Made by a program: the position numbers and the translations under genes. A stretch of DNA of 37,574 nucleotides, taken from positions 1 to 37,574 of the IMG/VR virus record IMGVR_UViG_3300045988_043612. One strand, 5' to 3'. Below, one piece after another: positions 5,008 to 21,783 of the stretch (within the stretch, counting starts at the first letter, position 1; each line of letters starts with the position of its first letter). The DNA is from a virus. A model generated the notes under the pieces. It did not search any database, was not told the origin of the DNA, and saw nothing but the letters and a program-made list of their open reading frames with translations.

Positions 5008-5323
5008 ATTTCCTTGCTAGGCTAAGTAAGCATCTGATTCTCAGACACTTGCAAAAATGGCTAGATACAAGATTTTTTACTGCACCCGGTAACTGCCTAT
5101 CGTGCAGACAGTTACAACGATTTGGATAGATAGATGGGGTAGTTCCCTATAACTTAGAGAGAAAACACTGTTTGGTATACATTTTTTACTTCCTTTTCTT
5201 CCTTTTCTTCTGTTTTTTCAGTAATATTCCATCTCAAAGTCTTTGCAAAATAGCATTTTATCTATCCATTCTTAGCTAACTACCTATCAATCAACTACTT
5301 ATATAGGATAGATATAAATATAT

Positions 5324-5372
5324 GATCTATCCTAATTAATGTTAATCAACTAGAAATGAGCGATTTACACAG
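5324..5372. repeat. 49-bp module copy A1 (ATCTATCC-N5-AATGTTAATC.ACT..AAATGAGC.A.TTACA.AG)
   Basis: Hand alignment to 21727-21775 gives 38 of 49 identical positions without gaps. Confidence 0.85.
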
Positions 5373-5389
5373 GATTGTTAAAATACCTT

Positions 5390-5438
5390 CATCTATCTTA
5401 ACTGATATGAAATGACTGATTTTCAGCAAGTTACATAG
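5390..5438. repeat. 49-bp module copy A2 (diverged)
   Basis: Same length. About 32 of 49 positions are identical to 21727-21775. Both are preceded by CCTT and end in TTACATAG. Confidence 0.7.
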
Positions 5439-5670
5439 CCTTATTACCCTTTTCGCTCCCAAGTCATTCTATCCACTATTTCGTGGATTCTCATATACAA
5501 TTTATTCAAAACCTTTGGCATGCCTCCGTATTCTCCGGAACTTGAACAGTTTTGCATAGAATTGTTTTATTAAAATTTTCGCAGCCAAAAATAATTACAG
5601 GCTCAAAAAATAAGCAACCTCTTTTCTCTAGTTTTGAGAAATTCCCGAAGAAACCTCAACGTACACGGAA

Positions 5671-5712
5671 AACTGAAAACGCGAATCCAGTTTTTTAGGC
5701 TGAATCCGCGTT
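5671..5712 (-). terminator. Candidate intrinsic terminator after the 204-aa gene
   Basis: The minus strand reads AACGCG-gatt-CAG-cctaaaaaa-CTG-gatt-CGCGTT followed by TTCAGTTTTCC. The stem is interrupted by a 4x4 internal loop. Confidence 0.45.
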
Positions 5713-5751
5713 AAATGACCCCTTTCGGGCAAACACAATTTAGAAATTATC

Positions 5752-6366
5752 TTACAACATTATCGCACATTCTTTGGCTACCCTATTAAGAAATTCATCT
5801 TTCAGCAGCGGATTTCTTTCGCCATCCAAGAATACCCATGCGTCACCGTCCCATCCGAACAACGATATGCTGCCATCAGTGTAATGCCTCAACTCATAAA
5901 TCTGTGGCATTTCCGACCCTTTCGTTCTCTCCCTGCTGACGCGTAGCACCCGCTTCGTCCGTGATTCCTTCGCTGCTAGTTTTTCCTCGAACTGGGCGGC
6001 TTCGTACCGGTCTGTGGACAGACAGGCGTTCACCATCTTCTTTCTCTCTTCGCTGACGGACAGCGGGCTTCTCCGGCCAAACAGATTCTTGCAGTAGGTA
6101 TGAAACTCGATGCTGTTATCCTCTATTACATGTGCCGGGCAAAGGTATCGCGGGTTCCCCCGCTTTCGTATGTCCAGTTTCGGAACGTACCCGCGTTCCC
6201 TCACGAAGTTAAGGAACACGAATGTCCGTACATTAAATATCTTAGCGATCACCCGCGCGTCTACATAGCGGTCAGCGCTGCTACGGCTAGTGTCATTATC
6301 GTTCCGGCTACGCATCCCACGAGCATCGCCATTATTACCGAAATTATGATTGATTTCATTATCCAT
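5752..6366 (-). CDS. Putative DNA-binding protein with an HTH_17/excisionase-like motif (204 aa)
   Basis: A disordered Asn/Arg/Ser-rich N-terminus is followed by ARVIAKIFNVRTFVFLNFVRERGYVPKLDIRKRGNPRY. This fits the pattern 'helix, turn, recognition helix, G-x-hydrophobic-P, beta wing'. It is the last gene before non-coding region A. Confidence 0.5.
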   Translation of the reverse strand: MDNEINHNFGNNGDARGMRSRNDNDTSRSSADRYVDARVIAKIFNVRTFVFLNFVRERGYVPKLDIRKRGNPRYLCPAHVIEDNSIEFHTYCKNLFGRRSPLSVSEERKKMVNACLSTDRYEAAQFEEKLAAKESRTKRVLRVSRERTKGSEMPQIYELRHYTDGSISLFGWDGDAWVFLDGERNPLLKDEFLNRVAKECAIML

Positions 6367-6376
6367 GGTTATTTAA

Positions 6377-6553
6377 TTAAAGCGTTATACCTATGATAAC
6401 CCCGATAGCGATTCCCAATGAGACCCCCACTATTGTTCCTATCCCCATACCCCACGTACACAATCGTCCCGTGTCTACTCTCAATTCCTCATGCACAGCT
6501 TGCGGACGTTCAAGTTCTTTCCTGCATTCTCTCAATTCTTGTTCAGTACTCAT
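6377..6553 (-). CDS. Small tail-anchored membrane protein (58 aa), below the ORF-track cutoff
   Basis: Hand translation: MSTEQELRECRKELERPQAVHEELRVDTGRLCTWGMGIGTIVGVSLGIAIGVIIGITL. The ATG is at 6553-6551. It fills the gap between two called genes and has a C-terminal Gly/Ile-rich TM helix. Confidence 0.6.
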   Translation of the reverse strand: MSTEQELRECRKELERPQAVHEELRVDTGRLCTWGMGIGTIVGVSLGIAIGVIIGITL

Positions 6554-6565
6554 AATTTTATATAT

Positions 6566-7138
6566 TTATTTATAGATTAAGAAAGTCATTATAACACCGA
6601 TTGAAACTCCCGCCATTACCGCGATCCAGTTATAAAAAACTACACCCGTCTTGTATCGGTCGTACTCGTTTGCCAGGTCTTTTAAGCGTGACCTCAGCCT
6701 GTTGTTCTCGATTGATAGGTCAGCGATGTGTATCTGCATATCCTCTTCCGCTTTCTCCAGCTTGTACTTCTTTAGGCAATCCGGACAAAGTTTATCCGGT
6801 AAGCCTCCGTACTTCCCTTGTACCCTAGTTAGCAGGGAAGGGTGGACGGCTTTCCCACACATGATACATTGTTCCCGTAAAGACTCGTGCGTGCCAGGCG
6901 CAAACTTAATCGCCGCCTCTGCTACCTTCGACTCATCCCCGAATTCCCGTAACCGCGCGGCGGCTAGCCGGTCTTGCTTCGCTTTACCAGCATCCTTTAG
7001 CTTCTTCTCGGCGTGCGTCTTGATGAAGGCGTGAGCGGCGATTTCATTGCACCTTCTACACAGGCACACACCGTAGTTGTACATTAGCAACTCACCTACT
7101 CTTGTCTCTCCGCATACTGCGCAAATCGGGTCGTTCAT
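6566..7138 (-). CDS. Double zinc-ribbon, coiled-coil, C-terminal TM-anchored protein (190 aa)
   Basis: Cys pairs CAVCGE...CLCRRC and CIMCGK...CPDC; a coiled-coil segment ADLSIENNRLRSRLKDLANEY; and a terminal TM helix VVFYNWIAVMAGVSIGVIMTFLIY. Confidence 0.7.
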   Translation of the reverse strand: MNDPICAVCGETRVGELLMYNYGVCLCRRCNEIAAHAFIKTHAEKKLKDAGKAKQDRLAAARLREFGDESKVAEAAIKFAPGTHESLREQCIMCGKAVHPSLLTRVQGKYGGLPDKLCPDCLKKYKLEKAEEDMQIHIADLSIENNRLRSRLKDLANEYDRYKTGVVFYNWIAVMAGVSIGVIMTFLIYK

Positions 7139-7332
7139 CTGTCGCCTCCTTTCTTTACGTCTGCGATAGCCCTAGCGAAACTATCTAGCCCATACTTGGC
7201 ACGTATCAGCGAGGCATCTTTAAACTTTTGGTCTTTCTTTTCCCAATATCTCGGGCAGTAAGAACCTACGATGGTGACGTAGCGGGTACCGCCGTCTATT
7301 ATTTCTTTCCAGCATTCAACACATTTAATCAT
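7135..7332 (-). CDS. Small zinc-ribbon-like protein (65 aa)
   Basis: CVEC ... C (CPRY) cysteine pattern; 4-nt overlaps with both neighbouring genes. Confidence 0.6.
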   Translation of the reverse strand: MIKCVECWKEIIDGGTRYVTIVGSYCPRYWEKKDQKFKDASLIRAKYGLDSFARAIADVKKGGDR

Positions 7333-7760
7333 GATCTTTTCTTTTTAGGATTCGTTAAACTTAAAATCTGCGCGGCTAGCAGCCTAGCCTCTAACACTGT
7401 CATATCTACCAACGGAAGCCCGGTGCACCCTTTCCTCACTTTGATCTTTCCATCCTCGGTGTATGCTTTCGCCCATTGGTTCGCTATCTCGTCCCGGCGT
7501 GCCCGCATTCTCTTTTGGGCTTCTTCCATCCGGTCCAGTTGTTCCTTCATTGAAGTGACATCGATAGGATTCCTCCGGTACGCTTGCCATTCATTGTATG
7601 CTTTCCGGTTATCCTCCAGCAGCGTGTACATTACTTTCCTCGTTATACTTCCGTTCCAAAAAGAGTTGATTATATTCTCCTCCTCCTTCTTATATTCCAG
7701 GAACGTCATTCCCGTTTCCGCGAAATCTCTGAAATCTTTTGTATTATCCATTATCTCCAA
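7329..7760 (-). CDS. Hypothetical protein (143 aa)
   Basis: Minus-strand ORF coupled to both neighbours; helical and charged. Confidence 0.7.
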   Translation of the reverse strand: MEIMDNTKDFRDFAETGMTFLEYKKEEENIINSFWNGSITRKVMYTLLEDNRKAYNEWQAYRRNPIDVTSMKEQLDRMEEAQKRMRARRDEIANQWAKAYTEDGKIKVRKGCTGLPLVDMTVLEARLLAAQILSLTNPKKKRS

Positions 7761-8200
7761 AATGTTAGGAACTCGATACCGAGTAAGTTACCAATCGTGA
7801 GTCGTATCGCTGAACCTGCAAGTCCTCCGGCAATCGTCAGACCGAAGTCTATCCAGTCCCATTTCCCGCCGTGCAAGCGGTCTTTAAATTCCATACCCGC
7901 CGCACATCCTAGTGTGAAGTTCAGCCCGGCGATGATGGATACCAAGAAACCGTAGAGTAAATGCTTCCATCTGTTAGACTGCTTGAACCAGTTGATAATC
8001 CTGAATTTAGGTTTGCGGAAAGCAATGTGGTGGCTGTCAAATTTCCTTCCATACACGTGGGTGACATCTACCGTTAGCGGATACTTCGCATTTGCCTGCC
8101 CGTCTACGGAGACCTGACTCGTAGGTGACAACAGTGATTCAGTGTACTCGTATAATTCCGTCTTTGTTCTGAAAATCAAAACTTCTTTTTCTAATTTCAT
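7751..8200 (-). CDS. Membrane protein (149 aa) with a KD-x-GG-x-W-D-x-D...GG motif between two TM helices
   Basis: TM segments LLYGFLVSIIAGLNFTLGCAAGM and IDFGLTIAGGLAGSAIRLTIGNLLG. The intervening EFKDRLHGGKWDW loosely recalls VanZ/DUF2279-like membrane proteins (weak). Confidence 0.65.
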   Translation of the reverse strand: MKLEKEVLIFRTKTELYEYTESLLSPTSQVSVDGQANAKYPLTVDVTHVYGRKFDSHHIAFRKPKFRIINWFKQSNRWKHLLYGFLVSIIAGLNFTLGCAAGMEFKDRLHGGKWDWIDFGLTIAGGLAGSAIRLTIGNLLGIEFLTFWR

Positions 8201-8622
8201 GGCTGCTCGGTTATTACTTTGATCATCTTCTTAATCTCTCCCTTACTCATCTGAATGGTGGCGGCGTACATCTCGGTTCTGCCTACTTCCCAACCTCCCA
8301 TCATTGACCCCATCCACCGGGCTACGTTATCTGTGGGATTGTTAAGGGCTACGGATTCACCACCCTTGCCGGAGTAGTCCACCATTGATTGGAGGATCGC
8401 CGTTGCCTGTTCCTTGTCTCCTAGAGAGACCGTGAGTATCTGAGATACATCTTGCTTGACTAGACCGCGAACCTCGAAGGTATCTCCTGTCTTGTAGAGT
8501 TTGAGAACACCCATGCGGTAGGAACCGATTTGCTCAGGCCCCGCGGATTCTTTGATTTGAGCGATTGACTGTGCCGCGAATGCGGCGATTAAAACGATAA
8601 ATGCTAATGTAAACTTTTTCAT
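8197..8622 (-). CDS. Secreted/periplasmic protein (141 aa)
   Basis: Classical signal peptide MKKFTLAFIVLIAAFAAQSIAQ with an AQ/I cleavage-type site and no lipobox Cys. Confidence 0.7.
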   Translation of the reverse strand: MKKFTLAFIVLIAAFAAQSIAQIKESAGPEQIGSYRMGVLKLYKTGDTFEVRGLVKQDVSQILTVSLGDKEQATAILQSMVDYSGKGGESVALNNPTDNVARWMGSMMGGWEVGRTEMYAATIQMSKGEIKKMIKVITEQP

Positions 8623-8642
8623 GATTCTTTGTTTTTAAATGA

Positions 8643-8948
8643 TTATAAAATTCTTATTTCTGTTACTTTAACTAAAGCCTTCGCACCGTATCCTAGATTG
8701 TTTCCTACGTTCCATTCCGGGAACCGGGCTATGACTGTTTCTATTTCCAATTCACACGGGAATGTCTCTATAAGGTCTACCGAGCTGTCTAGGAAGTTGT
8801 ATATTCCATCCGGAGATTCGTATTCATGAACTGACATCTTCCACATAAACAGCTCCTTTGGTCCTTCGATTCGTACTGTTGTTTGATTCCTGCTGTATGG
8901 TATGACGTTAGGAGTATCAACGTTATCCAGTTCTAGTACTATGTTCAT
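8643..8948 (-). CDS. Hypothetical protein (101 aa)
   Basis: Minus-strand ORF in the array. Confidence 0.65.
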   Translation of the reverse strand: MNIVLELDNVDTPNVIPYSRNQTTVRIEGPKELFMWKMSVHEYESPDGIYNFLDSSVDLIETFPCELEIETVIARFPEWNVGNNLGYGAKALVKVTEIRIL

Positions 8949-8966
8949 ATCTTTATTATTTAATTG

Positions 8967-9146
8967 TTAGTAGCTCAATGATATCAAGGTCATTCCGCCT
9001 TGCTCCTTCATATACTTTCTAGCCTGTTGGTATGCGGCGTTCCTAGACGTTGCATATATGCACAGACTTTCGATATCGTAATGTCCGTTAATCAATTCTC
9101 TTCTCATGGTTGCCACGAATACGGGTTTCAAAACGTTAGTTCTCAT
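8967..9146 (-). CDS. Small hypothetical protein (59 aa), just below the ORF-track cutoff
   Basis: Hand translation: MRTNVLKPVFVATMRRELINGHYDIESLCIYATSRNAAYQQARKYMKEQGGMTLISLSY. Its ATG (9146) is a similar distance from promoter-cassette copy 1 (TATATTTG box to ATG about 46 nt) as the 100-aa gene is from copy 2 (also about 46 nt). Confidence 0.6.
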   Translation of the reverse strand: MRTNVLKPVFVATMRRELINGHYDIESLCIYATSRNAAYQQARKYMKEQGGMTLISLSY

Positions 9147-9250
9147 AATCCTATGTTTTTAATTGTTACTACTTGTTTAACTTTGATGTGACAAATATAG
9201 GGCAAACTTCCGAATCTTCCAAATTTTGACAAAAGTATTAACGTTGATTA
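9147..9250 (-). promoter_or_regulatory. Promoter cassette copy 1 (-7 TATATTTG, -33 TTTG, palindrome TTTTGTCAAAA, TTAACG-N5-TTAACG)
   Basis: The minus strand reads cgttaatcaacgttaatacTTTTGTCAAAAtTTGgaagattcggaagtttgcccTATATTTGtcacatcaaagttaaacaagtagtaacaattaaa. The -7 box is at 9192-9199 and the palindrome at 9224-9234. The distal TTAAC overlaps the SNF2 stop codon. Confidence 0.75.
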
Positions 9251-10648
9251 ACGAATATACATGGAAACGATCTCTTTGATAGCATCTATTAACTTATTCT
9301 GTGTATCGGACTTCCCTTGTACGGCGGATATCACCCGCTCGTCTATTGTACCCTTAGCGCAAAGATGGTGGATGAACACGGGCTTTGTCTGTCCCTGCCG
9401 CCACAGACGGGCGTTGAACTGTTGGTATAGCTCTAGGTTCCACGTTACACCGAACCAAATGATATTGTTCCCGCCCTTCTGCAAGTTCAAGCCGTGACCC
9501 ACGGAAGCGGGGTGGGCGATGAGCACCTTTATCTTTCCGGCGTTCCAGTCACGCATGATCTGTGTGCCGTCCCCTTTCGAGTCGCCGCCTATGCGAACGG
9601 GCTTCAACTTGGCCAGGGCTTTCTCGATACGCACAGCCTCGTGGCGGAAGTTGTAGGCGATAAGGACCGGAGCACCATTAAGGGATTCCACCATCTCGCA
9701 CAGGGATTCAATCTTTGCCTCGCTTACCTGATGGATGTTACGCTCAGCGTCGTACACCGCACCGCCGGCGAATTGCAGCAGTTTGTTCGACAGTGCAGCA
9801 GCAGACAGCGCCGTGATCTCGGTTTCATCCCCATCGGCGAACATGGAATGTATCTGCTCCTTCTCGAATTCCTTGTACATAGCCGCCTCCTTCGGCGACA
9901 GCGTAACCTTGTCATATATGTAATTCACTTCCGGCATATCCAAGTAGTCAACCGCTTTCATCGAAAGAGTGATGTCGGCGATCTTATCGGATAATACTTG
10001 CTCGGTGTTCTCGCGTGGCTTGTAGTTAAATACTATCCCGCCATTCTGAGCACCCGGTTTAAAGTAGTTAGCCCGGTAGTCCGTGATAGACTTCCCTAGG
10101 CGCGCGCCACCGTCTATGACGAACATCTGTGCCCACAGGTCTATAAGACCATTAGGCGCGGGCGTACCTGTCAGACCGATAATGCGGTTGGCATGGCGGC
10201 GTATCTTCTTCATGGCTTTAAAGCGTTCAGAGGCGTGGTTCTTGAATGATGATAGTTCATCCACCACGATGCAGTCGTAAGGGACCTTAACGCCTCCGAA
10301 GTGTTCCAGTAGCCATACTAGGTTATCCCTTCCTATTGTGTAGATATCCGCGTCCGCGTGGGCTGCGGCTACTCTCTGCTTCGGCGTCCCGGCTATCACT
10401 GAGATGCGAAGGTTACGGAGGTGAGACCAGTTTTCGATTTCGTCTCCCCACGTCACTTCCGATACTCGTTTAGGCGCAACGATGAGCACCTTTGTTACTT
10501 CGAAGTACTCGATAAGATCGGCAACCGCCGTTAAGGTGGTCACCGTCTTTCCCAGTCCCATATCGAGGAATAGAGCGCATTCCGGATTATTCTTGATGTG
10601 CTCTACCCCTTGAATTTGGTATTTATGTAATTGATTCCTGTTTAGCAT
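9248..10648 (-). CDS. SNF2/DEAD-like helicase (466 aa)
   Basis: Motif I LDMGLGKTVTT, motif II VVDELSSFKN, and C-terminal helicase motifs HPASVGHGLNLQ and ARLWRQGQ. Confidence 0.9.
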   Translation of the reverse strand: MLNRNQLHKYQIQGVEHIKNNPECALFLDMGLGKTVTTLTAVADLIEYFEVTKVLIVAPKRVSEVTWGDEIENWSHLRNLRISVIAGTPKQRVAAAHADADIYTIGRDNLVWLLEHFGGVKVPYDCIVVDELSSFKNHASERFKAMKKIRRHANRIIGLTGTPAPNGLIDLWAQMFVIDGGARLGKSITDYRANYFKPGAQNGGIVFNYKPRENTEQVLSDKIADITLSMKAVDYLDMPEVNYIYDKVTLSPKEAAMYKEFEKEQIHSMFADGDETEITALSAAALSNKLLQFAGGAVYDAERNIHQVSEAKIESLCEMVESLNGAPVLIAYNFRHEAVRIEKALAKLKPVRIGGDSKGDGTQIMRDWNAGKIKVLIAHPASVGHGLNLQKGGNNIIWFGVTWNLELYQQFNARLWRQGQTKPVFIHHLCAKGTIDERVISAVQGKSDTQNKLIDAIKEIVSMYIR

Positions 10649-10658
10649 TCCTTAAATA

Positions 10659-11093
10659 TTAAATACCCCAATGCCTATCCTGTAACTTCTCGAACAGGTC
10701 GTCCAGTGTCCAGCGTTCCGGAAACAACTTTATCAACGCCTCTACGGTTTCTAACATGTCCGGTCTCAGGCTGTCCGTTCCAAGAAGGTCGGCGATAGCG
10801 TGGTGCTCGTTACCTTTGTAAATCTCTGCCCGGTAGGTTTCCTTTAGTTCACCCCTGCCTTGCGTCAGACAAGCGTCTTCCAGGTTTCCCAAGCCGCGGC
10901 GGGAATACTCAGCGCGGACGATCTTGTCGGGTATCTCGGTGAGAAGGAATTGTTTCAGATTGTCGGGAAGCGCGCATACCGCTTCCCCTATCATGTACCC
11001 GTCCGCCGGAGTATTGTTCGCCATCTTGGTGACGTTATCCACGAACAACTTTATCCGGTCTTCCCTTAGTTTCTTTCTAAAATCTACTGCCAT
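10659..11093 (-). CDS. Hypothetical protein (144 aa)
   Basis: Minus-strand ORF in the array. Confidence 0.7.
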   Translation of the reverse strand: MAVDFRKKLREDRIKLFVDNVTKMANNTPADGYMIGEAVCALPDNLKQFLLTEIPDKIVRAEYSRRGLGNLEDACLTQGRGELKETYRAEIYKGNEHHAIADLLGTDSLRPDMLETVEALIKLFPERWTLDDLFEKLQDRHWGI

Positions 11094-11095
11094 GA

Positions 11096-11350: not shown

Positions 11351-11352
11351 AA

Positions 11353-11613: not shown

Positions 11614-11614
11614 A

Positions 11615-12952: not shown

Positions 12953-12987
12953 AATCTTATATTTTTAATTGGTTTATTGATTAATAA

Positions 12988-13290: not shown

Positions 13291-13400
13291 GGCTTTTATT
13301 ATTTAATTGTTACTACTTGTTTAACTTTGATGTGACAAATATACGGCGAATTTCCGAAACTTCCAAATTTTGACAAAAGTATTAACGTTGTTTAACGATA
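13291..13400 (-). promoter_or_regulatory. Promoter cassette copy 2
   Basis: Near-identical to copy 1 over about 95 bp. The -7 box TATATTTG is at 13336-13343 and the palindrome TTTTGTCAAAA at 13368-13378. Confidence 0.75.
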
Positions 13401-13403
13401 CAA

Positions 13404-13453
13404 TAAAAAACCACCCTAGCAGAACCTTCTCGGCGGTGCTAGGGTGGAAAAAA
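13404..13453 (-). terminator. Strong bidirectional intrinsic terminator
   Basis: A perfect 11-bp stem CCACCCTAGCA / TGCTAGGGTGG (13411-13447) is flanked by A6 on the left and A6 on the right, giving a T6 run after the hairpin on either strand. Confidence 0.85.
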
Positions 13454-13589
13454 TATGAAAAAGGCATTCGACAAAATTAGTTTCATGCCGGGAACCGCTG
13501 TCCCCCTTGTTGTATGAAGTGAACTTACATAACTAAAAGTCTTTTAAATGATTACAATTATATCTCAATGGTGATGCAAAGATAACCCT

Positions 13590-15968
13590 TTATTCGAAAT
13601 CTGCCTCACAGTCGCGCACGAATGTTGTTTGTTTCCCATAACATTTCACATACCTCTGTCCCACGGGCTTGAATCCCAACCGTTTCAGAATGTTCGACAT
13701 TTGGCGGGCACGCGCCGAATTGAAATCGGTACGCTTGTTTCCGAGGCAGTCTACCCATATCTCGAACGTGCAGAATGAATCCCTTATCTCCGTTCCTTCC
13801 GCATATACTCCGGTACGGTCTGCAAAATCCCTACGATCCGCGTAGCAGAGATCAAACCAGTCAGCCGGGAACTTCCGGTTAACGTAGTCATAGACTAAAC
13901 CTTCCATTGGGTCACGTTCGGTGTATTCTTCGCGCTTTCCCACGGCAATGGCTTCCGCTTCCGGAGATAAGATAAGCGATTCGCCTGAACGATACAGTTC
14001 CACGGCTTCCGCCCACAACTGATCCACAATCTCAGCGAATTCGTCTTCCCGTTTCGGATTCGTTATGATGTCTGCGGCGGGAGTCCATTCGACCGCCACG
14101 GGAAAGAAACGGCGGTTTCCTGTTGGGTCTTTTAGGAAGTCGTCTTGGTTCGTAGACCCGAAGAACACACATTGCCTTTTGTGTGTTTTGATGCGCTTGG
14201 CGTATGCAGCCCGATACGTATCCTCAGTCTTTGAGATGAAGTTCTTCATCACCTCGATGTCGGTTTTCTTAAGGGCGGATAGCTCAGCAAGCTCCACCAG
14301 CCACGACTTTTGGATAGCCTCGTACGCGTTTTTCCCCTCCATCGATACGAGTGAGTCATTGAACCATCCTTTAGATAGTTTCTGAATCAGCGTTGACTTT
14401 CCCGCGCCCTGCTGCGATACCATAATAAACGCCGTATCGAATTTGGTTCCCGGCCTAAACATGCGGGCAACCGCGGCAACCATCATTTTCCGGAACGCCT
14501 CGCTGACATAGATGTTATCCTCCGACCCCATATAGGTAGTCATAAATTTATCCAGTCTAGGTTCGAAATCCCATTCCAGTGAGTTAAGATAATCCTTTAT
14601 CGGATGAAATGCATTATCAAGCGCCACCTTCTCGATAACGGCGTTCATCTTGTCCTTGTTATATATTTTATGCAGCCTTTCGATACGGGTGGATATGATG
14701 GCTACGCCGGTATCGTCTAGCAGGTCGCCGCGCTTTTTAGTCTTATCGAAGTACGGTGTGCGGGTATAAACCACCACGTCTTGAAAAAGGTCGTAGGCTA
14801 TCAACTTGTTAAGCAGCGGGTCTGATTTAAACGCATTCTCAAAGTTAACCGTCGTAACGGTCTTGTTGCCTTTCGAATCTATGTCCCATTCTATTTCCTC
14901 TTCATCCGCCACCTCAGCTTTTGCCTCATCCGGAATCTCTTCGAAGTCGCTGAGGTAGTCTTCTACCTTCACCATCTCGTGTACTACGTCCTCGTCTGCT
15001 TGCATTAACTTCACCATCTCAGCCTCACTCTCCTTCTTTCCGAGATGCCCATACAGGTGAACGCGCACCAAGTCATAAGCGTTGTATGTGTGTCCGTCTC
15101 CTATCGGGTCGGTGGAATGGTGGGAATACGCAAACATGTTATCATACACTACCATCCCGGCGGCGGATGTTCCACCTTTATATGTGTAGCGGTCGTTACC
15201 TTCATCCTCGTAAACATCGGACAAGTATTTTTCAATAGCTCCCTGAATGGTGTAGACGCGGCAAAACGCACCGATCATTCCCGGTTTAGTCGTGGGGTCT
15301 GCCGAAGCCTTCACCTGTCCACGCACTTCCGCATCTTCGGAGTCAGCGAAAGCCCACAGGCGCACATCTTGCCACGCTTCACCGTCTCCGTAGAGGCTGA
15401 GAATATAGTCAACGTCCAAAGGTTCTCCCTTCTGAGTCTCAAAGTAGAAAGGTTGGTCAGACGAAAGGGTAGCCCAAAACATTAGACGTTCCGCCTGGAA
15501 TGTGGTAGTATCAAAAAGTTCGATGCCCATCACCTCGGCGACTTTACGGGAAGCGGCTTCATACTCCTCGCGCGATTTGATTTCCCTGTTTAACGGGATG
15601 GTAAGACGGTAACGGCGTTTTCCCGGTCTGTCCGAACGTGTGCCATAGATAGCAGCCGCACAATCGAACTTCATCGAGAAATCGAAGAAGAAATCGTCTG
15701 TACCGAAGTCTACGTCTAAAGTGATCAGCGAACGGGAAGTAACGGCATTCTTGGTGCGGCGACCTCCGGAAAGCGTTCCGCCTACGAAGCCACCCTTGTC
15801 TTTGCGGATAGCCTTTTCTGTCTTTGCCAGTAGGTCGTACTCCCGCGTGGTCTCGGAGTCGCGTTTAGGCGTTCCGAGAATCTCCACAAGTTCGTCCCAC
15901 GTATATGACTTCCTTTTCCAATTCGTTGAACGAGCACCACCACCTACTGAGATATTGTATTTTTCCAT
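13590..15968 (-). CDS. Bifunctional primase-polymerase (AEP) / SF3 (VirE/D5-like) helicase (792 aa)
   Basis: The N-terminal part has AEP-like motifs LITLDVDF (DxD), YSHHSTD (sxH) and AYDLVRV. The C-terminal part has a P-loop VSQQGAGKSTL and Walker-B-like WLVELAE. Confidence 0.85.
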   Translation of the reverse strand: MEKYNISVGGGARSTNWKRKSYTWDELVEILGTPKRDSETTREYDLLAKTEKAIRKDKGGFVGGTLSGGRRTKNAVTSRSLITLDVDFGTDDFFFDFSMKFDCAAAIYGTRSDRPGKRRYRLTIPLNREIKSREEYEAASRKVAEVMGIELFDTTTFQAERLMFWATLSSDQPFYFETQKGEPLDVDYILSLYGDGEAWQDVRLWAFADSEDAEVRGQVKASADPTTKPGMIGAFCRVYTIQGAIEKYLSDVYEDEGNDRYTYKGGTSAAGMVVYDNMFAYSHHSTDPIGDGHTYNAYDLVRVHLYGHLGKKESEAEMVKLMQADEDVVHEMVKVEDYLSDFEEIPDEAKAEVADEEEIEWDIDSKGNKTVTTVNFENAFKSDPLLNKLIAYDLFQDVVVYTRTPYFDKTKKRGDLLDDTGVAIISTRIERLHKIYNKDKMNAVIEKVALDNAFHPIKDYLNSLEWDFEPRLDKFMTTYMGSEDNIYVSEAFRKMMVAAVARMFRPGTKFDTAFIMVSQQGAGKSTLIQKLSKGWFNDSLVSMEGKNAYEAIQKSWLVELAELSALKKTDIEVMKNFISKTEDTYRAAYAKRIKTHKRQCVFFGSTNQDDFLKDPTGNRRFFPVAVEWTPAADIITNPKREDEFAEIVDQLWAEAVELYRSGESLILSPEAEAIAVGKREEYTERDPMEGLVYDYVNRKFPADWFDLCYADRRDFADRTGVYAEGTEIRDSFCTFEIWVDCLGNKRTDFNSARARQMSNILKRLGFKPVGQRYVKCYGKQTTFVRDCEADFE

Positions 15969-15977
15969 TTCTGTAAA

Positions 15978-17987
15978 TTATTTCTTGTAAAAGTAACTTT
16001 CAAATCCTTCCGCGTTCAATGGTATGTCGAAGACCTTTGCCCATTCCGGTAAGATACACATAGCGGTACACACATCATCCAGTGATTCGCCGCCATCTTC
16101 CAATACTTCGTCGATCAATTCATCATGAACGTGCCCCACGATTCCGGAGTCGCCGGGTCGCAAAGATAATACGTTTTTCAATGCGGATGCTAGCAGGTCG
16201 CGCGAAACTGCTTGGATTAAATTCTCCGTCAGCTTTCCGCCGTATGTGTCCAATTCGCACCAAGACCCCGCCGGGCGGCCTTTATCCGCCGTTCCTGCCA
16301 CTCCGTAATAACAGATAGCCTCTACGTCTTTGCTGTCACCATTGGCATACCGGATGGTCTTATGCTTAATCGAGGCGAAAGGGTAGTGCAATGATCTTCC
16401 GGAAGGTAGTCGCATGGCCAACGTGTTGAACTGAGGAATCCAGTAAAAGGTGCAGATGGTTCTTCCGCCGATTACAACCGGAACTTCCCGTTTCGCCATG
16501 ATTGCCCGTTTCGCTGAGTTTTCCAGTTCGCGCCACAACTTCACGATATTTGGTGAAGCGTCCCGCCATCGAAGGATAATACCTTTAATCTCATCCTCCG
16601 GAATAGCTCCTTTCTTGTCCATCGTCTTGATAGCACCCACCCATCCGCCATACCCTAGGGCTAGCTCTGTTACCTTTCCCTGCTGTCGGTATGGTGAGTG
16701 CTTGTCAATGCTAGCCTCGTCCAGTCCGAAGGTACGGGCGGCGGAAGTTATATAGATGTCACCGCCTCGACGGAATGTGTCGATACGCCATTTCTCATCA
16801 GCTAGGCAAGCGATTACGCGGGCTTCGATGGCTGAGAAGTCTGCTACCTTGAACTTGTACCCCTTGCGGGCAATGAATGCGGTACGGAGAAGCTGAGACA
16901 GCAAAGAAGGGATGTTATCATACATTAGAATGAGATCATCCAGTCCTAGGTTCTTCACGTCCTCGCGGGCTGCTTCTAATTCGGCGTCTGTCTCGAAATA
17001 ACTTTTAGTAAGGTTTTGCATCTGCACCATGCGTCCCGCCCAACGTCCGGTACGGTTTGCGCCATAGAAACGGTATAATCCCTTCACTGTGCCATCTTTG
17101 CATACGCAATCTAACATCGCACCGAACTTCGCTACGGATGTCTTGTAGGCGATCTTCCGAGCTGCCAGGACACGTGTAACGTCTTCATTATCGCACTCCT
17201 TGATTATCCCGTCTATCGTATCTTTGTTGATAGAGTCGAACTGCTTTCCGGTCATCGCGAATATGAAATCGTTTATCTGCTTGGATGACTTAAGAGACGC
17301 GATACCGTACTTTTCGCGTACCTTTTCGTTTAAGACATCCATGTAGTTATCAAAGATAGTCTTTGCCTTCGAAGCCAAATGAATGTCTATCCGGCAGCCT
17401 CTATCGTTGATGGCTTGGTCAATAGCATAGTTTTCAACCTCAGAGGCGGGAAACTCGATATGTCTTAGCTTAGCTTCGATTTCACGTTCCGAAAGAATGT
17501 CATATTTCAGATACTTCTTGAAATCTTCCCATTTTTCCGGGTATTCTTCCGGGTAAATGCGCTTTCCACCTTTCTGAGGAATACAGAACAACTTAATAAG
17601 GTTCAGACCTGTATCTAGCTTTCCGTCAGTCAGCTTCATTGCCTGTGACACCTTTCCCAACGATTCGGGAAATCCTGCATACAGGGACAGCGTAGCAGTA
17701 CATCTGAATTTGCTAGCGGGTATATCGTAGCCATATGCACGCAAGCAAAGACGCTCAAACGTAGCGTTGTGGGCATATATAAGGGTATCCGGCTGTTGAA
17801 TGAGGCGGAAGAAGTCGTGGCAATCGTCATATTGCGTTAGGTCTATGCACTGGAACGGTCCATCATCAATTGCGTAACCTATCAGAAGGATTTCGAAATC
17901 CTCTGATTCTACATACCTATACATTCCACCTTTCTTGATGTCCACGTCTGAGTATGTTTCGAAGTCTATAAATATCTTTTTCATCAT
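15978..17987 (-). CDS. Family A DNA polymerase with 3'-5' exonuclease domain (669 aa)
   Basis: Exo I FIDFETYS, Exo II YAHNATFE, Exo III KYLKYDIL. Pol motif A VADFSAIEARV, motif B RQQGKVTELALGYGG, motif C GHVHDELI. Confidence 0.95.
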   Translation of the reverse strand: MMKKIFIDFETYSDVDIKKGGMYRYVESEDFEILLIGYAIDDGPFQCIDLTQYDDCHDFFRLIQQPDTLIYAHNATFERLCLRAYGYDIPASKFRCTATLSLYAGFPESLGKVSQAMKLTDGKLDTGLNLIKLFCIPQKGGKRIYPEEYPEKWEDFKKYLKYDILSEREIEAKLRHIEFPASEVENYAIDQAINDRGCRIDIHLASKAKTIFDNYMDVLNEKVREKYGIASLKSSKQINDFIFAMTGKQFDSINKDTIDGIIKECDNEDVTRVLAARKIAYKTSVAKFGAMLDCVCKDGTVKGLYRFYGANRTGRWAGRMVQMQNLTKSYFETDAELEAAREDVKNLGLDDLILMYDNIPSLLSQLLRTAFIARKGYKFKVADFSAIEARVIACLADEKWRIDTFRRGGDIYITSAARTFGLDEASIDKHSPYRQQGKVTELALGYGGWVGAIKTMDKKGAIPEDEIKGIILRWRDASPNIVKLWRELENSAKRAIMAKREVPVVIGGRTICTFYWIPQFNTLAMRLPSGRSLHYPFASIKHKTIRYANGDSKDVEAICYYGVAGTADKGRPAGSWCELDTYGGKLTENLIQAVSRDLLASALKNVLSLRPGDSGIVGHVHDELIDEVLEDGGESLDDVCTAMCILPEWAKVFDIPLNAEGFESYFYKK

Positions 17988-18001
17988 TCACTTTTTTATT
18001 T

Positions 18002-18039
18002 TATTAAAAATGGCGGCACGCTTCTACTCATGCCGCCAT
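18002..18039 (-). terminator. Hairpin (9-bp stem) with a short T run between the SSB-like gene and the polymerase gene; attenuator or partial terminator
   Basis: ATGGCGGCA (18010-18018) pairs with TGCCGCCAT (18031-18039). The minus strand continues TTTTAATAAAAT. Confidence 0.5.
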
Positions 18040-18132
18040 TTGCACACCTGTTACTTATTGATATAATAAAATGGATTAAATAAAATATGTAGGAATCTTT
18101 GTGTCCGGCGTTCCCTTTTCCGGTTTATTTAG

Positions 18133-18705
18133 TTAGTCGAAGATTGGATCATCGTCCGCACCCGATTCATCATCGAAGTCGTCTTCCACGTTTCCTGCAC
18201 CGCCGCCTCCGAATGCCGTATCATCTTTAACTTTCTGCAAACCATTCAGACCGAATGAAATTCCCTTTCCGCCTGCGTTATCATAGACATAAGCGTCAAT
18301 CGAAGCTACCCCCCATGAACCGGAATAAATATCCTCTTTTCGTGTGATAGGCTGTTTGAACTTGTCAATCACTAGTGGAGCACCTTCTTCTTCTTTGCGG
18401 TAGGCTGAGATTTTAAAGTATCCAAATTCTTCACTGTATTTTGAATCGTCACCGTCAGCGATCGGATTCCATTTCACGCCTGACGCAGTGTTGGGATTCG
18501 GCATAACGAATCTAGGGTGCTCTGCTACGTACTCGTCTTGTAGCTCCTTGATTGTTTTACGAACCTTGTTAATCAGCTCCTTGTCGGTTTTCGGAATCAA
18601 CAAAGTAACTTCGTATCTGTTCTTTCCGGAATTGAATGCGTCTCTCGGTTCGAATACTCTTACCCATGTAAATCTCACATTCTTTAAAACTAATTTTTTT
18701 CCCAT
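18133..18705 (-). CDS. Phage SSB-like protein (DUF2815-type, 190 aa)
   Basis: The N-terminus LKNVRFTWVRVFEP is typical of this family. It has a Gly-rich linker and an acidic tail ending DDDPIFD, like SSB C-terminal tips. Its position next to the nuclease and polymerase also fits. Confidence 0.8.
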   Translation of the reverse strand: MGKKLVLKNVRFTWVRVFEPRDAFNSGKNRYEVTLLIPKTDKELINKVRKTIKELQDEYVAEHPRFVMPNPNTASGVKWNPIADGDDSKYSEEFGYFKISAYRKEEEGAPLVIDKFKQPITRKEDIYSGSWGVASIDAYVYDNAGGKGISFGLNGLQKVKDDTAFGGGGAGNVEDDFDDESGADDDPIFD

Positions 18706-18813
18706 AATCGTAAATTTTTAAATTTGTTGTTATTACTGTTTCTTTAAGACTCTGCAAATATATGACTACTTTCTGAAACTTCCAAATTTTGACAAAAGTC
18801 TTAACATTGATTA
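18706..18813 (-). promoter_or_regulatory. Promoter cassette copy 3 (core conserved, leader diverged)
   Basis: The -7 box TATATTTG is at 18755-18762, the palindrome TTTTGTCAAAA at 18787-18797, and TTAACATTGATTAAC overlaps the stop of the nuclease gene. Confidence 0.7.
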
Positions 18814-19992
18814 ACCTTCTATATCGAAGTCGCTTGCAGTATCCCGCTCGTATTCCTTTCCGGGATGGCTGTCCGGGACTAGTTTAGGCGCTCCGGGCTG
18901 AGATTTCACATACTCGCCTATCTCAGCAGCGAATACTTTCTTTCCCATTAGCTTTTCCAGGTCCGTGATACCTTTCAGTGAGATGTTCAGTACTTCGTCC
19001 TCTAGGTAGGTATTTAGGAGCTTGTCACGCACTTTATCCGGGTCAATGATCTTCCGGGCACTTCGTCCTTCAACTAACTTGTAACCGTCCCATTTCTTGC
19101 CCTTCATGGCTTCGGTGTAGGCGTATTGGTTGATGGATTCAAGCCACGACTTGTATCTGTCGATCTTGCCGATCATCTCAACTATTTCCTCATCCGTCAT
19201 TATCAGCGTATCGGGGTGATCTTCGAAGTCTTTGATAATCTCGTTCTTCTGCGCCCGGCAAGTCGCTTTAACGGGACAAAACTGACACCACGATCCCACT
19301 ACCTGCTCACCCTTTCCTTCGTAGGCTAGCTTAGCTTTCGGTCTTAACACTTTCTCAGCCCAATCGAGTAAATCCCTTGCATCCATCTCGATTGTCTCAA
19401 AATGCTTCAATCTAGGCTGCGCTACGGACATTCGAATACGCTTCACCTTTGGGCCGCCGAACTTGGCTAATACCCCTAAAGCGTACATTTTGAACTGCGG
19501 GCTTTCCGCCGGGACCTTTACACCTTTTCCGTACTTTAGGTCAATGATGTGCACTATGTGTTCGGATATTAAGGAAACGTCAGCGCTTCCGAAAGATTCA
19601 GGTGCGTATTTGGAGATGTCCAACTTTTCCTCTAGGTACGTAGCGACCGAACCACCGAAAGGTCCTTTTTGCATCTCATAAAATTCGCCTGTCACAAAAT
19701 TAACGTAGTGGCTGATAGCCTCCTTCATTTCCTCGGAATAGTACTTGTTTGAGGCGATATTCTCCGGAACGGGTAATTCATCGCATTCGGGGTAGAACGT
19801 TCCGTATATCCAACTTTTCAATGCGTATTCAGCCAATTCGTGGGCTGTTGTGCCTTCTTCCGCGTATTCGCTCGTCTTGCTTCCTGCTGCGTCGGCCAGG
19901 CGGGCAGACGGCGTGCAATTAAGCCATCTTTCAGAAGAGGAAGGGGACAGTATCGCGTGTCCCCTTTCTGAATGGTTTATTACTTTTTGCAT
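18811..19992 (-). CDS. PD-(D/E)XK nuclease, DUF2800/Cas4-like (393 aa)
   Basis: N-terminal HAILSPSSSERWLNCTPS, catalytic-type IIDLKYGKG, and a C-terminal Cys cluster CQFCPVKATC. Confidence 0.85.
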   Translation of the reverse strand: MQKVINHSERGHAILSPSSSERWLNCTPSARLADAAGSKTSEYAEEGTTAHELAEYALKSWIYGTFYPECDELPVPENIASNKYYSEEMKEAISHYVNFVTGEFYEMQKGPFGGSVATYLEEKLDISKYAPESFGSADVSLISEHIVHIIDLKYGKGVKVPAESPQFKMYALGVLAKFGGPKVKRIRMSVAQPRLKHFETIEMDARDLLDWAEKVLRPKAKLAYEGKGEQVVGSWCQFCPVKATCRAQKNEIIKDFEDHPDTLIMTDEEIVEMIGKIDRYKSWLESINQYAYTEAMKGKKWDGYKLVEGRSARKIIDPDKVRDKLLNTYLEDEVLNISLKGITDLEKLMGKKVFAAEIGEYVKSQPGAPKLVPDSHPGKEYERDTASDFDIEG

Positions 19993-20723
19993 AAGTCGTA
20001 GAACTTAGTGTAATCCTGCTTTTTCAGCGTTGAGAAATTAGCGCACCCGCACGCTTCGAAGGCTTCCGCAATCACTTTGCGCTTGTTAGCGGCGATCAAT
20101 TCACGGGCAACGTTACGGAGCATCTCAATCGTGATCTCTTCCTCTTCCGGAGCTTCCTCTTCCGGAGATTCCGGTTCTTCCTGTGGCTTGATGTCTTCTT
20201 GCGGCTTGATATCTTCAGCTTTCTCGGTGGCTTCGTCTTCTTTCTCAGCCTCAGCGATAGCGGATATCAGCAAACCACGTAACTTGGCATTCGTATTCTT
20301 TCCCGGTCTAGTGGTAGGGTCGATCCCAAACGTTTCAAGGGCTTCGAGTAAAACGGTCGTAGGAACGCTCTTCATCTCTTCCTCAGTCATTTTCAAGGCA
20401 TCTTGCACTAATTCAGCGTAATCCTTCGGTCCGTCTTCCGCCTTCTCTTCCTGTGGTTTTTCTATCTCTGCTTTAGCCATTGCGTCAGCGAAATTGGCTA
20501 CCTTCTCAGTCACGATAGGTTCCACCGCGGCGGGCTTACCAATGTTGACCACGCGTCCAGTTTCAAGATCGGTGTACCTCACTCCTGTCCCCAGGGCGGG
20601 TCTGTCGAATGCAGGGATTCCTTCGGCTGCATTATGTTCGTTCGCTAATGCGTGCAGGAAGTCTGATGCACATTTCAATTCACTTCCTCTGCTGTCTCCG
20701 TCAATGCTAATTTCAATTTTCAT
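19980..20723 (-). CDS. Highly acidic hypothetical protein (247 aa) with an EDIKPQ tandem repeat
   Basis: An 18-bp tandem repeat at 20176-20211 encodes EDIKPQEDIKPQ. It is followed by a long Glu/Pro-rich segment. Confidence 0.75.
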   Translation of the reverse strand: MKIEISIDGDSRGSELKCASDFLHALANEHNAAEGIPAFDRPALGTGVRYTDLETGRVVNIGKPAAVEPIVTEKVANFADAMAKAEIEKPQEEKAEDGPKDYAELVQDALKMTEEEMKSVPTTVLLEALETFGIDPTTRPGKNTNAKLRGLLISAIAEAEKEDEATEKAEDIKPQEDIKPQEEPESPEEEAPEEEEITIEMLRNVARELIAANKRKVIAEAFEACGCANFSTLKKQDYTKFYDLCKK

Positions 20724-20727
20724 AATT

Positions 20728-20916
20728 TTACTGTTTTTGATATGTTAAACACTTGTTAATAACTTCGTTTTCGTCTACGCGAATCTTCCCCTGTTGGTTC
20801 TTGTATTCGCTTATGTAACCTTGCCGTATCTTGTAACGGACGGCGTTCTCGGTCAAGCCCATTAGGTGGGCTGCTTCGCTGATTCGTATCAGCTTTGGTT
20901 CTAAATTTCCAGTCAT
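20728..20916 (-). CDS. HTH_17 / excisionase-MerR-like DNA-binding protein (62 aa)
   Basis: LIRISEAAHLMGLTENAVRYKIRQGYISEYKNQQGKIRV fits the winged-HTH pattern of the AlpA/excisionase family. Confidence 0.75.
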   Translation of the reverse strand: MTGNLEPKLIRISEAAHLMGLTENAVRYKIRQGYISEYKNQQGKIRVDENEVINKCLTYQKQ

Positions 20917-20917
20917 A

Positions 20918-21247
20918 TTAAAAATTTTTAGATTTGTGAAACGTACTCAAAAAATCTTTGTACGCCATCTCAACCGCTCCGGCGAATATTGACCTGTACC
21001 GCTCGGCTGTCGGGTAGATGAACTCGCGAATTTTAAATTCAAACTCTTCTCCGCAGTCCTCTAGCGCTAGCTTCTCACGAAACAGTTCCTCAGTTGTCAG
21101 GCGGAGCGGTGAACTAAACAGGTTATACACGTCTGTTGCCTTTAGCTGCGTATTGATATGCAAGCGGGCTTCTTCGTAGTAGAACCGTTCAAGCGCACAA
21201 AGATTAATTTTCTTCTCTCTCATTGCTTCTCGGTTTAATCGTCTCAA
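20918..21247 (-). CDS. Hypothetical protein; start uncertain (TTG at 21247 in the track, first ATG at 21223)
   Basis: This is the first gene downstream of non-coding region B. The frame stays open to 21337 without any ATG. Confidence 0.6.
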   Translation of the reverse strand: MRRLNREAMREKKINLCALERFYYEEARLHINTQLKATDVYNLFSSPLRLTTEELFREKLALEDCGEEFEFKIREFIYPTAERYRSIFAGAVEMAYKDFLSTFHKSKNF

Positions 21248-21323
21248 TCCGTAGGCTGCTCGTATCAGACCTTTCTTGCCGTCTAGGAGGTCGGCGGCAC
21301 GTTTGATTCGTAATTCGATGTTG

Positions 21324-21331
21324 CAAAGATA
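21324..21331 (-). promoter_or_regulatory. Candidate early promoter -7 box TATCTTTG
   Basis: The minus strand reads attaTTGcagattcaaataaaagccgTATCTTTGcaac. A TTG lies 19 nt upstream. Confidence 0.45.
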
Positions 21332-21417
21332 CGGCTTTTATTTGAATCTGCAATAATTTAGGCAAAAGATTTATGGGGATTAACGTTTATTAGTGAATCG
21401 AATGTAAAAATGGGCTT

Positions 21418-21783
21418 GGATAGATGGAATCCCACGTAACTTGCTGAGTATCAGGGGTGATTTTTGAAAGTGGATAGTTTAAAATCTGTTAAATCACTTG
21501 TAAGTTGCTGCAAACCAGTGAGTTAGCTAAAAAGTGGATAGATAGATAGGTGGTTCTCTATAAGTATGGAGGAAAGTGTGTGTTGCGATTGATAAATTAT
21601 AATTACACCCTTATAATACACTACTAAGATTTTCTCCATGTATTATAGTGAAACATCTATCCATCTATCTATATTAAGCTAAATAGCTATAAATGAGACG
21701 ATTCCATGTGAAAGTTAAAAACCCTTCATCTATCCAACAGAATGTTAATCTACTGTAAATGAGCAACTTACATAGATAGATAC
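21418..21783. repeat. Iteron field B: direct-orientation boxes on the left arm, inverted boxes on the right arm, AT-rich palindromic core
   Basis: Left arm: GGATAGATGG 21418-21427, GGATAGTT 21472-21479, GGATAGATAGATAGG 21536-21550. Right arm: ATCTATCCATCTATCTAT 21655-21672, ATCTATCC 21728-21735. Nested inverted repeat 21556-21571 / 21634-21648. AATTATAATT at 21595-21604. Box 2: GTAACTTGCTGA 21436-21447 and GTAAGTTGCTG 21500-21510. Box 3: CTGAGTATCAG 21444-21454. Confidence 0.85.
21727..21775. repeat. 49-bp module copy B1
   Basis: 38 of 49 positions identical to 5324-5372 by hand alignment. Confidence 0.85.

Follow-up and report, generated by a model that had tools for sequence, protein, structure and literature searches.

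Paired octamer arrays at the two operon boundaries of an ARB25-like Bacteroides phage are probable origin-type sites for its primase-helicase

The DNA analyzed here, the IMG/VR virus record IMGVR_UViG_3300045988_043612 (37,574 bp, referred to as the window), is a complete or near-complete genome of an ARB25-like siphophage of Bacteroides thetaiotaomicron. It contains two large intergenic regions, A (4885-5751) and B (21248-21828), each of which carries a hub of short repeats that we interpret as a probable origin-type site for a primase-helicase encoded by the phage. Matches to the window were found in 56 Bacteroides phage records, with identities of 82-92% across most of the query for the best of them, and all genes of the window are carried on the minus strand. 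Gene order was assigned with the annotated relative BT24 together with Pfam and PHROG scans. In transcription order, the late arm contains terS (4258-4884), terL, the structural genes, an amidase and a DUF6549 protein (21829-22395), and is followed by region B, which separates the lysis module from the early/replication operon. The early arm then opens with a 101/109-amino-acid (aa) protein, a 62-aa HTH_17 protein, a 247-aa acidic protein and a DUF2800 exonuclease, continues with an Enc34-type SSB (a protein that binds single-stranded DNA), PolA, a 792-aa VapE-type primase-helicase (13590-15968), small genes and an SNF2 helicase, and closes with more small genes, a 204-aa protein (5752-6366) and region A, after which terS follows again. 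Hub B heads the early/replication operon and hub A, 16.4 kb away and between the last early gene and terS, heads the packaging/structural operon. A preliminary description of the same DNA had placed the two regions at the early/late operon boundaries with a single direction of transcription, and the gene map bears this out.

The repeat that characterizes both hubs is the octamer GGATAGAT, which is present eight times in the genome, four times in A and four times in B with no copy elsewhere, where 1.18 copies are expected; none of 100 shuffles yielded eight. With one-mismatch sites included, 17 of 43 sites fall inside the 1.4 kb of the hubs in a genome of 37.6 kb. The iteron core reads tGGATAGATr, and sites are often arranged in tandem at a 4- or 8-bp phase, as in AGATAGATGGATAGAT. 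Hub A (5034-5480; 67.4% AT) contains four exact and four one-mismatch sites, and hub B (21417-21808; 66.9% AT, against 53.1% for the genome) contains four exact and five one-mismatch sites. In each hub the octamers run one way, are interrupted by an AT-rich centre of about 100-120 bp, and then run the opposite way, giving plus-strand layouts of > >> (centre) < > < < < for hub A and > > >> (centre) << < > > for hub B. With eight and nine sites at no more than one mismatch and with inner sets that are opposed, both hubs have the arrangement that defines origins of Staphylococcus aureus pathogenicity islands (SaPIs).

In hub A, the inner left iterons are the overlapping octamers GGATAGATAGAT (5124-5135, plus strand) and the inner right iteron is ATCTATCC as read on the plus strand (5260-5267, minus strand). 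The 122 bp between these opposed iterons (5137-5258; 68.9% AT, purine/pyrimidine-skewed) form the candidate unwinding region. Hub A also has an outer iteron pair at 5306-5313 (plus) and 5325-5332 (minus) and degenerate iterons at 5059-5066 (plus), 5391-5398 (minus) and 5467-5474 (minus), the first of which is a perfect site in relatives. In hub B, the inner left iterons GGATAGATAGATAGGT (21536-21551, plus) and the tandem 8-bp pair ATCTATCCATCTATCT (21655-21670, minus) enclose a candidate unwinding region of 101 bp (21553-21653; 70.3% AT), the core of which, TGTAATTATAATTTATCAATCGCAAC, is conserved within clade 1 of the relatives considered below and has a looser counterpart in clade 2, judged by eye from alignments. 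One outer iteron (21418-21425, plus) is the nearest to the early promoter, and further iterons lie at 21472-21479 (plus, degenerate), 21728-21735 (minus), 21774-21781 (plus) and 21786-21793 (plus, degenerate). The flank beside the inner set at 5124/21536 is common to both hubs and reads, on the gene strand, CTTATAGAGAACCACC in B and GTTATAGGGAACTACC in A. An open reading frame (ORF) of 35 aa at 5172-5279 (plus) in the hub A centre is of low complexity (FLFFLFF…) and of unconserved length, and a small reverse-strand ORF in this centre is annotated in some records (ARB25_44; BF1-3_gp38). The small ORF inside the hub A centre is probably not a gene.

The preliminary description had proposed that the two regions are paralogous, and the best local alignment of A with B, which pairs 5260-5372 with 21663-21775 over 113 bp, has a score of 59. 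This exceeds everything obtained in the shuffled control that the description had named as a possible refutation (300 dinucleotide shuffles; mean 22.4, standard deviation 2.5, maximum 35) and in alignments of A with random genome segments (maximum 31). Within the aligned segments, a 49-bp module (5324-5372 in A, 21727-21775 in B) matches at 38 of 49 positions with no gap, exactly as claimed, and the third copy reported at 5390-5438 agrees with the B copy at 32/49 and with the 5324 copy at 31/49 positions. Two of the finer correspondences stood in part. At 5123/21535 the 13 identical bases TGGATAGATAGAT are present, and the GGTTC.CTATAA proposed to continue them aligns only with a 1-nt gap; the B counterpart of the sequence starting at 5260 is real, forming part of the best local alignment, and begins at 21663 rather than at 21655. 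The modules at 5123/21535, 5260/21663 and 5338/21741 share one offset (16395-16412) and are collinear, as the common module order had implied. Palindromes of the form CTGA-N3-TCAG, reported from both regions, number three in the window (5034, 5416 and 21444), all inside A or B, where 0.42 are expected. The paralogy, the shared motif families and the position at the two operon boundaries are likewise conserved in every relative whose sequence spans both regions.

Whole genomes and contigs from IMG/VR and ENA were compared in three clades, with helicase identities of 100-80% (clade 1), 66-67% (clade 2) and 55-57% (clade 3). Hub A is kept in 49 phage records and hub B in 55, every one of the three clades carries both hubs, and where the octamer changes it changes in both hubs together. 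Clade 1 carries GGATAGAT in both hubs, with 0-5 copies elsewhere; BT16 combines GGATAGGT(A) with GGATAGAT, and its GGATAGGTA is found four times in A, twice in B and nowhere else. Clade 2 carries GCATAGAT and GCATTGAT, with three copies of CATCTATGC in A, four in B and none elsewhere in BF1-2, and six, six and no copies of GCATAGAT in BT2. Clade 3 carries GTCACAGAT, GTAATAGAT and GTAAAAGA-type octamers, with counts in locus L026 of three in A, five in B and none elsewhere, and of three, three and none. The layout of opposed sets around an AT-rich centre is complete in both hubs of all three clades.

Hub-to-hub alignments were obtained in 16 of 18 relatives (108-392 bp, scores 48-456), the other two loci being cut before hub A. 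The hubs of one genome resemble each other more than they resemble hubs of different clades, and in some clade 3 genomes the two are almost identical over about 300-370 bp. Judged from these alignments, the likeness within genomes indicates concerted evolution, and both hub copies are kept under selection. In the distal part of clade 3 region A, several inverted copies of TTTTGAGAAGAAAGTTTTTTG are present (L023, 14661-14960; L025, 14369-14623; L026, 18609-18900) that are absent from the window.

B. thetaiotaomicron is the host of BT2, which carries GCATAGAT, as well as of ARB25, BT24 and other relatives, which carry GGATAGAT. As phages of the same host species carry different octamers, the factor that recognizes the octamer is therefore encoded by the phage. 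Host DnaA boxes (TTATCCACA-like sites, such as CTATCCACT with two mismatches) were rejected on the same grounds.

The protein proposed to bind the iterons as initiator is the 792-aa primase-helicase (13590-15968, minus strand), a VapE-like protein of the SaPI Rep type. It matches the Pfam VapE-like domain (E 1.4e-75) and primase and helicase families of PHROG, and its residues 371-713 match SaPI1 Rep1 (PDB 7PDS; E 5e-71), the sole sequence match in PDB. The C-terminal 146 residues were modelled with AlphaFold2 from a 10-sequence alignment, giving a mean pLDDT (predicted local distance difference test) of 78.5; the final 60 residues reach about 90 and have the order beta-alpha-alpha-alpha-beta-beta. 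In a Foldseek search of PDB with this model, the top match was 7pds_A (E 2e-5, probability 1.0, template modelling score 0.55), followed by winged-helix transcription factors and winged-helix domains of the origin recognition complex (ORC). The initiator is thereby predicted to possess a C-terminal winged-helix DNA-binding domain, as in Rep. Its presumed recognition helix differs by octamer class in the ARB25-like clades (ARARQMSN, ARAKQVAN, SKAREVAG, AKARELAG and VKARELSN). No DnaB-type helicase or loader was detected in Pfam scans of 30 proteins, in which PolA, the VapE primase-helicase and the SNF2 helicase were found.

The association of this helicase with octamer arrays extends across its family. 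A profile-based scan of IMG/VR yielded 46 loci in which the helicase is only 36-40% identical, 43 of them with enough downstream sequence, and an array was scored where an 8-mer was present at least four times in the 650 bp following the helicase gene and no more than once elsewhere in 10-22 kb. By this measure, the helicase gene is immediately followed by an octamer array of lineage-specific sequence in 37 of the 43 loci (among L057-L103). These arrays comprise about 25 different 8-mer strings, or roughly 22 distinct motifs, and share the layout of opposed sets and AT-rich centre, as in L069, where tandem TGTGAACA pairs, a 92-bp AT-rich centre and opposed pairs follow one another. The distant loci keep a module of exonuclease (DUF2800), SSB (Enc34-type), PolA, helicase and SNF2 helicase, and no homologues of the HTH_17, 101-aa, 204-aa, 247-aa or terS proteins were detected in them (0/46 for HTH_17 and for the 204-aa protein). 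These distant phages and prophages share with the window the helicase family, the replication module and opposed tandem octamers around an AT-rich centre, and differ in that one array per locus was detected, immediately following the helicase gene, where a more distant second array was not systematically excluded.

Some of the distant loci also differ in octamer on a nearly constant helicase. In pairs whose helicase cores are at least 90% identical, identity of the winged helix is 83% where the octamers differ versus 99% where they are the same; the differences sit in the wing, and the comparison represents effectively one lineage split. The two octamer groups, L074/L093/L094 and L078/L081/L086/L087/L095/L101/L102, carry TGGACACA and GTTGCCGA, respectively, and their helicases differ mainly in the wing, which looks like a natural specificity swap.

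The Rep proteins of SaPIs serve both as self-loading helicases and as initiators, in which a C-terminal winged helix recognizes short iterons, and SaPI origins consist of 6-12 short iterons and an AT-rich centre that has two or more iterons on either side, the two sides pointing in opposite directions (PMC9371898); origins of Gram-negative phage-inducible chromosomal islands (PICIs) have been described likewise (PMC6092414). The window shares with these systems a homologous self-loading helicase of VapE/SF3 (superfamily 3) type (7PDS, E 5e-71), a winged-helix C-terminus, predicted here, and short iterons of lineage-specific sequence in two opposed sets around an AT-rich centre, and its helicase is fused to a primase as in PriRep5 of SaPI5. 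In contrast to those satellite islands, the element here is a virulent siphophage of 37.6 kb, its iterons are 8-9 nt rather than 5-6 nt long, and its array does not follow the helicase gene, being present instead as two paralogous arrays 16.4 kb apart, each with a second conserved motif. From these comparisons, the SaPI/PICI Rep-iteron origin is the closest mechanistic family, with four of its features present or consistent here and the position directly after rep as the one that is not.

We therefore read A and B as a pair of origin-type iteron hubs cognate to the initiator helicase of the phage, paralogous copies of one module, and give this reading a probability of roughly 0.65; the octamers would be the cognate binding sites of the winged-helix domain of the helicase. 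Among the three functions that the preliminary description had put forward, twin origins are favoured because of the SaPI Rep-type winged-helix helicase, the SaPI/PICI-type layout and the family-wide link between helicase and array, while a shared operator set is weakened and paired noncoding RNA loci are unsupported. By analogy to SaPI and PICI origins, the primase-helicase would bind the iterons through its winged-helix domain, separate the strands of the AT-rich centre, self-load as hexamers on either side and prime synthesis, and both hubs may act as origins. Alternatively, one hub might serve as an auxiliary initiator-binding site, either an enhancer of the P4 crr kind or a barrier to the fork that sets off the theta-to-sigma switch, a role that has been proposed for SPP1 oriR.

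Both hubs contain a second motif, GTAASTTGCTSA, which at zero or one mismatch is found four times in the window, always in A or B. In hub B it occurs as GTAACTTGCTGA fused to the palindrome CTGA-N3-TCAG (21436-21454, plus), with other copies at 21500-21511 (plus) and 21760-21771 (minus); hub A carries the copy GTAACTTGCTGAAAATCAG (5416-5434, minus) together with related sites at 5357-5368 (minus) and the palindrome at 5034-5044. The GTAACTTGCTGA-like motif is unchanged in clades 2 and 3 while the octamer switches, and the motif with its palindrome probably binds a second conserved factor, for which the early HTH_17 protein is the leading candidate. The 101/109-aa and 62-aa HTH_17 proteins (HTH_17, E 3e-5) are encoded by the first two early genes (20728-21247, minus), which in clade 2 are fused as one 166-aa ORF (BF1-2/BT2; L004, 8998-9498; L015, 1147-1647), and this fusion suggests that the two proteins work together. 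The HTH_17 stretch TENA(V/I)RY, read as a recognition helix by analogy to the MerR/HTH_17 fold, is invariant in clades 1-3. The neighbouring 247-aa acidic protein (19980-20723) is fast-evolving, with 45% identity to BT16 where its neighbours have about 80%, and may contain a SAP/HeH-like segment, read by eye from its sequence; the clade 3 protein taken as its counterpart by position has PEPAKE-type repeats.

Promoters were scanned for with the Bacteroides consensus TTTG-N19-21-TAnnTTTG. A scan for sigma-70 promoters and simple terminators was discarded, as its counts were at shuffle level and its consensus is wrong for Bacteroides. The early promoter, of Bacteroides type (TTG-N19-TATCTTTG; 21324-21354, minus), lies directly downstream of hub B and outside it, and shows no variation in clade 1 and is retained in clade 3. 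A candidate late promoter consists of a -7 box, TACCTTTG (4914-4921, minus), which starts 37 nt upstream of the terS ATG and is conserved in relatives, with no clear -33 element. The octamers overlap neither promoter; the nearest one (21418-21425) starts 64 bp upstream of the early -33 element (21351-21353), and about 135 bp separate the late -7 box from its nearest site. The early operon has an intrinsic terminator (5666-5712, minus) with a 13-bp stem that includes G-U pairs, followed by a U-rich tract, and relatives show compensatory differences in it, seen by eye in the alignment. In hub B, inverted iterons and the module form a long hairpin followed by U5 (21712-21808, minus; -33.8 kcal/mol, z = -5.9), whose T5 run is invariant in clade 1 and which may be the late-operon terminator.

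Additional elements were recorded around these signals. Host-type promoter cassettes (TCAAAATTTGGAAGnTTCnGAA ... TATATTTG), near-identical to one another and perfectly spaced as TTTG-N20-TAnnTTTG, are found three times on the minus strand, at 18755-18810, 13336-13400 and 9192-9255, preceding the SSB gene, the post-helicase genes and the genes after the SNF2 helicase, and two of the three have a second upstream box, TACTTTTG. Clade 3 repeats its early-promoter cassette after the helicase, and a third hub considered at that position in clade 3 was rejected, its similarity being that of the repeated promoter cassette. After the early promoter, relatives have a conserved GC-rich leader of about 110 nt (…GCCCCACCGAAACCGGGTTGAGGAAATAACGGGGAAAAGTGAAAGGGATTCCCCACGGAAAC…; for example L001, 21090-21299, with equivalents in L002-L008), which is tandemly duplicated in four genomes, is replaced by a different sequence in the window (21248-21320) and has no match in Rfam. 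Between hub A and the late -7 box lies a candidate pac-related element, a GC-rich palindrome (4964-5007; GGGGGG TCGCGATTCGCGA … CCCCCC) that is partly deleted in BT61P1 and whose adjoining 23 nt occur in duplicate in BT24. Binding sites of terS (pac) were rejected as the main explanation of the arrays, as the same array is found at hub B far from terS and distant array loci have no terS homologue. No tRNA genes were found in the window. Rfam gave no match at gathering score, and a permissive search of A and B returned only MIR6217, a plant microRNA precursor, with 23 bits where the gathering score is 110, which is an artefact of the long inverted repeat.

Several of these observations weigh against reading the hubs as origins. 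The centres are barely richer in AT than the rest of the hubs (69-70% versus 67%). GC skew gives no origin signal and is monotonic across the window, which is uninformative on this point since every gene is on the same strand. The arrays are found 5.3 kb upstream and 7.8 kb downstream of the helicase gene, and the region directly after that gene (13291-13589) contains no octamers, unlike in SaPIs and at the distant homologue loci. Octamer class tracks winged-helix sequence in clades 1-3 and in the one split between near-identical cores, and phylogeny is a confounder throughout; in the ARB25-like clades it co-varies with every protein, and naming the binder by covariation there was set aside as uninformative, as the 101-aa, HTH_17, 247-aa, 204-aa, terS and helicase proteins all diverge with phylogeny. 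The helicase alone does not account for the second motif and the palindromes. Finally, promoters and terminators share the intergenic regions of both hubs, with a strong hairpin and U5 formed by the hub B module itself, so that a transcriptional role of the hubs is possible.

Such a role is the basis of one alternative, in which the hubs are operator or enhancer arrays of a phage regulator that times early and late expression, either the 101-aa/HTH_17 pair or the 204-aa protein. Each hub stands directly upstream of a promoter signal, hub B of the invariant early promoter and hub A of the late -7 box, the HTH_17 gene is the second after hub B, and the 204-aa protein, encoded just before hub A, has a helix-turn-helix-like N-terminus by eye, with no family match in Pfam, PHROGs or PDB sequences. 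A late promoter with no -33 element might need an activator, and motif switches in both hubs together would be expected of any single trans-acting factor. However, the distance of 64 bp between the nearest octamer and the early -33 element, with neither promoter overlapped, does not favour an operator, and tandem 8-bp repeats in opposed sets round an AT-rich centre are the architecture of an origin. In addition, arrays follow the helicase in 37 of 43 distant loci that have no homologues of the HTH_17 or 204-aa proteins, and the putative HTH_17 recognition helix TENA[V/I]RY stays constant while the octamer switches. We consider an operator function of the hubs unlikely. A combined scheme, in which the origin moved off the helicase gene and was duplicated at two operon heads, so that one initiator couples replication to transcription while gene conversion keeps the hubs matched, is similarly unlikely. 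If such coupling were true, the late promoter that lacks a -33 element would be opened or activated when the primase-helicase loads at hub A, and occupancy of hub B would modulate the early promoter.

The octamers at two loci, probably bound by one initiator, have a counterpart in phage P4, in which 'type I' octamer iterons are found at ori and at crr, several kb apart, and both loci are needed in cis and bound by the alpha protein. P4 crr is a pair of direct repeats of about 120 bp and not a full copy of ori, and is an initiator-bound cis element distinct from it. The alpha protein combines primase, SF3 helicase and C-terminal winged helix on one polypeptide (PMC2777425), an architecture shared with the 792-aa protein, for which the winged helix is predicted. 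The two systems differ in that the primase domain of alpha is DnaG-like, that alpha gave no sequence match here, and that P4 is a satellite plasmid-phage of 11.6 kb.

In SPP1, oriL and oriR lie about 13 kb apart on the circularized genome, are similarly built from repeats and an AT-rich unwinding element, and are served by one initiator (PMC6316719). Like the phage studied here, for whose cluster headful packaging has been suggested, SPP1 is a headful-packaging siphophage with transcription on one strand and has two regions of repeats and AT-rich DNA kilobases apart, one of them in a long intergenic region among late genes (PMC6316719). In contrast, initiation in SPP1 is shared between gp38 as initiator, gp39 as a separate loader and gp40 as a DnaB-type helicase, none of which was found here in the Pfam scans; its oriL lies inside gene 38, and its repeats are direct boxes and not opposed octamer sets. 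SPP1 oriL/oriR is the closest parallel for the duplication, with an unrelated initiator system.

These two phages bear on a further alternative, in which the helicase-initiator binds both hubs and only one is an origin, the other being a fork barrier, a handcuffing or looping partner or an enhancer, with hub A perhaps part of pac. For SPP1, it has been proposed that gp38 bound at oriR halts the fork and triggers the synthesis of concatemers (PMC6316719), and P4 crr would be the model for an enhancer. Hub A adjoins terS and the GC-rich palindrome at 4964-5007, which is variable among relatives, and no cos ends or terminal repeats have been found in this phage cluster, for which headful packaging has been suggested. 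Against a single origin, both hubs keep the complete layout of opposed sets and AT-rich centre in three clades, the hubs are near-identical over about 300-370 bp in some genomes, with neither marked as defective by its sequence, and terS is not the variable partner, distant array loci having no terS homologue. One origin with an auxiliary site and two active origins are inseparable by sequence, and we regard the former as a minor possibility beside the interpretation of A and B as two cognate origin-type hubs. A role of the repeats as RNA, whether as terminator hairpins or as paired small RNAs from the inverted modules, is highly improbable, as the stability of the hub B hairpin with its conserved U5 just after the late operon and a stem pair that changes from U-A to C-G in four of nine sequences are set against an RNAalifold covariation term of only -0.11 kcal/mol, pairs that are merely the inverted octamers, tandem direct octamers for which pairing cannot account, no Rfam family at gathering score, and no host-type promoter between the iterons in the consensus scan to drive a small RNA.

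The preliminary description had stated that no such system had been described, which was too strong in view of SPP1 oriL/oriR, P4 ori/crr and the design of SaPI/PICI origins; given these precedents, the twin hubs would be a variant of origin types already known. ARB25-like phages are among the best-studied isolates on B. thetaiotaomicron, metagenomes of the human gut contain their relatives in abundance, and our search of the literature on this phage group returned nothing on replication origins, cis-regulatory DNA or these two regions. The present analysis provides origin predictions at the level of single bases and names an initiator with its putative binding domain, so that it becomes a testable question whether a virulent phage uses two cognate origins and what purpose the second would serve. 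More generally, an octamer array would mark the origin in phages with a VapE-type primase-helicase, and this rule may be a general aid to origin prediction, useful for origin annotation and for the design of phage-derived replicons in Bacteroides. The concerted change in iteron specificity at loci separated by 16 kb would represent a cis element and a trans-acting factor that co-evolve, with gene conversion keeping the two copies matched.

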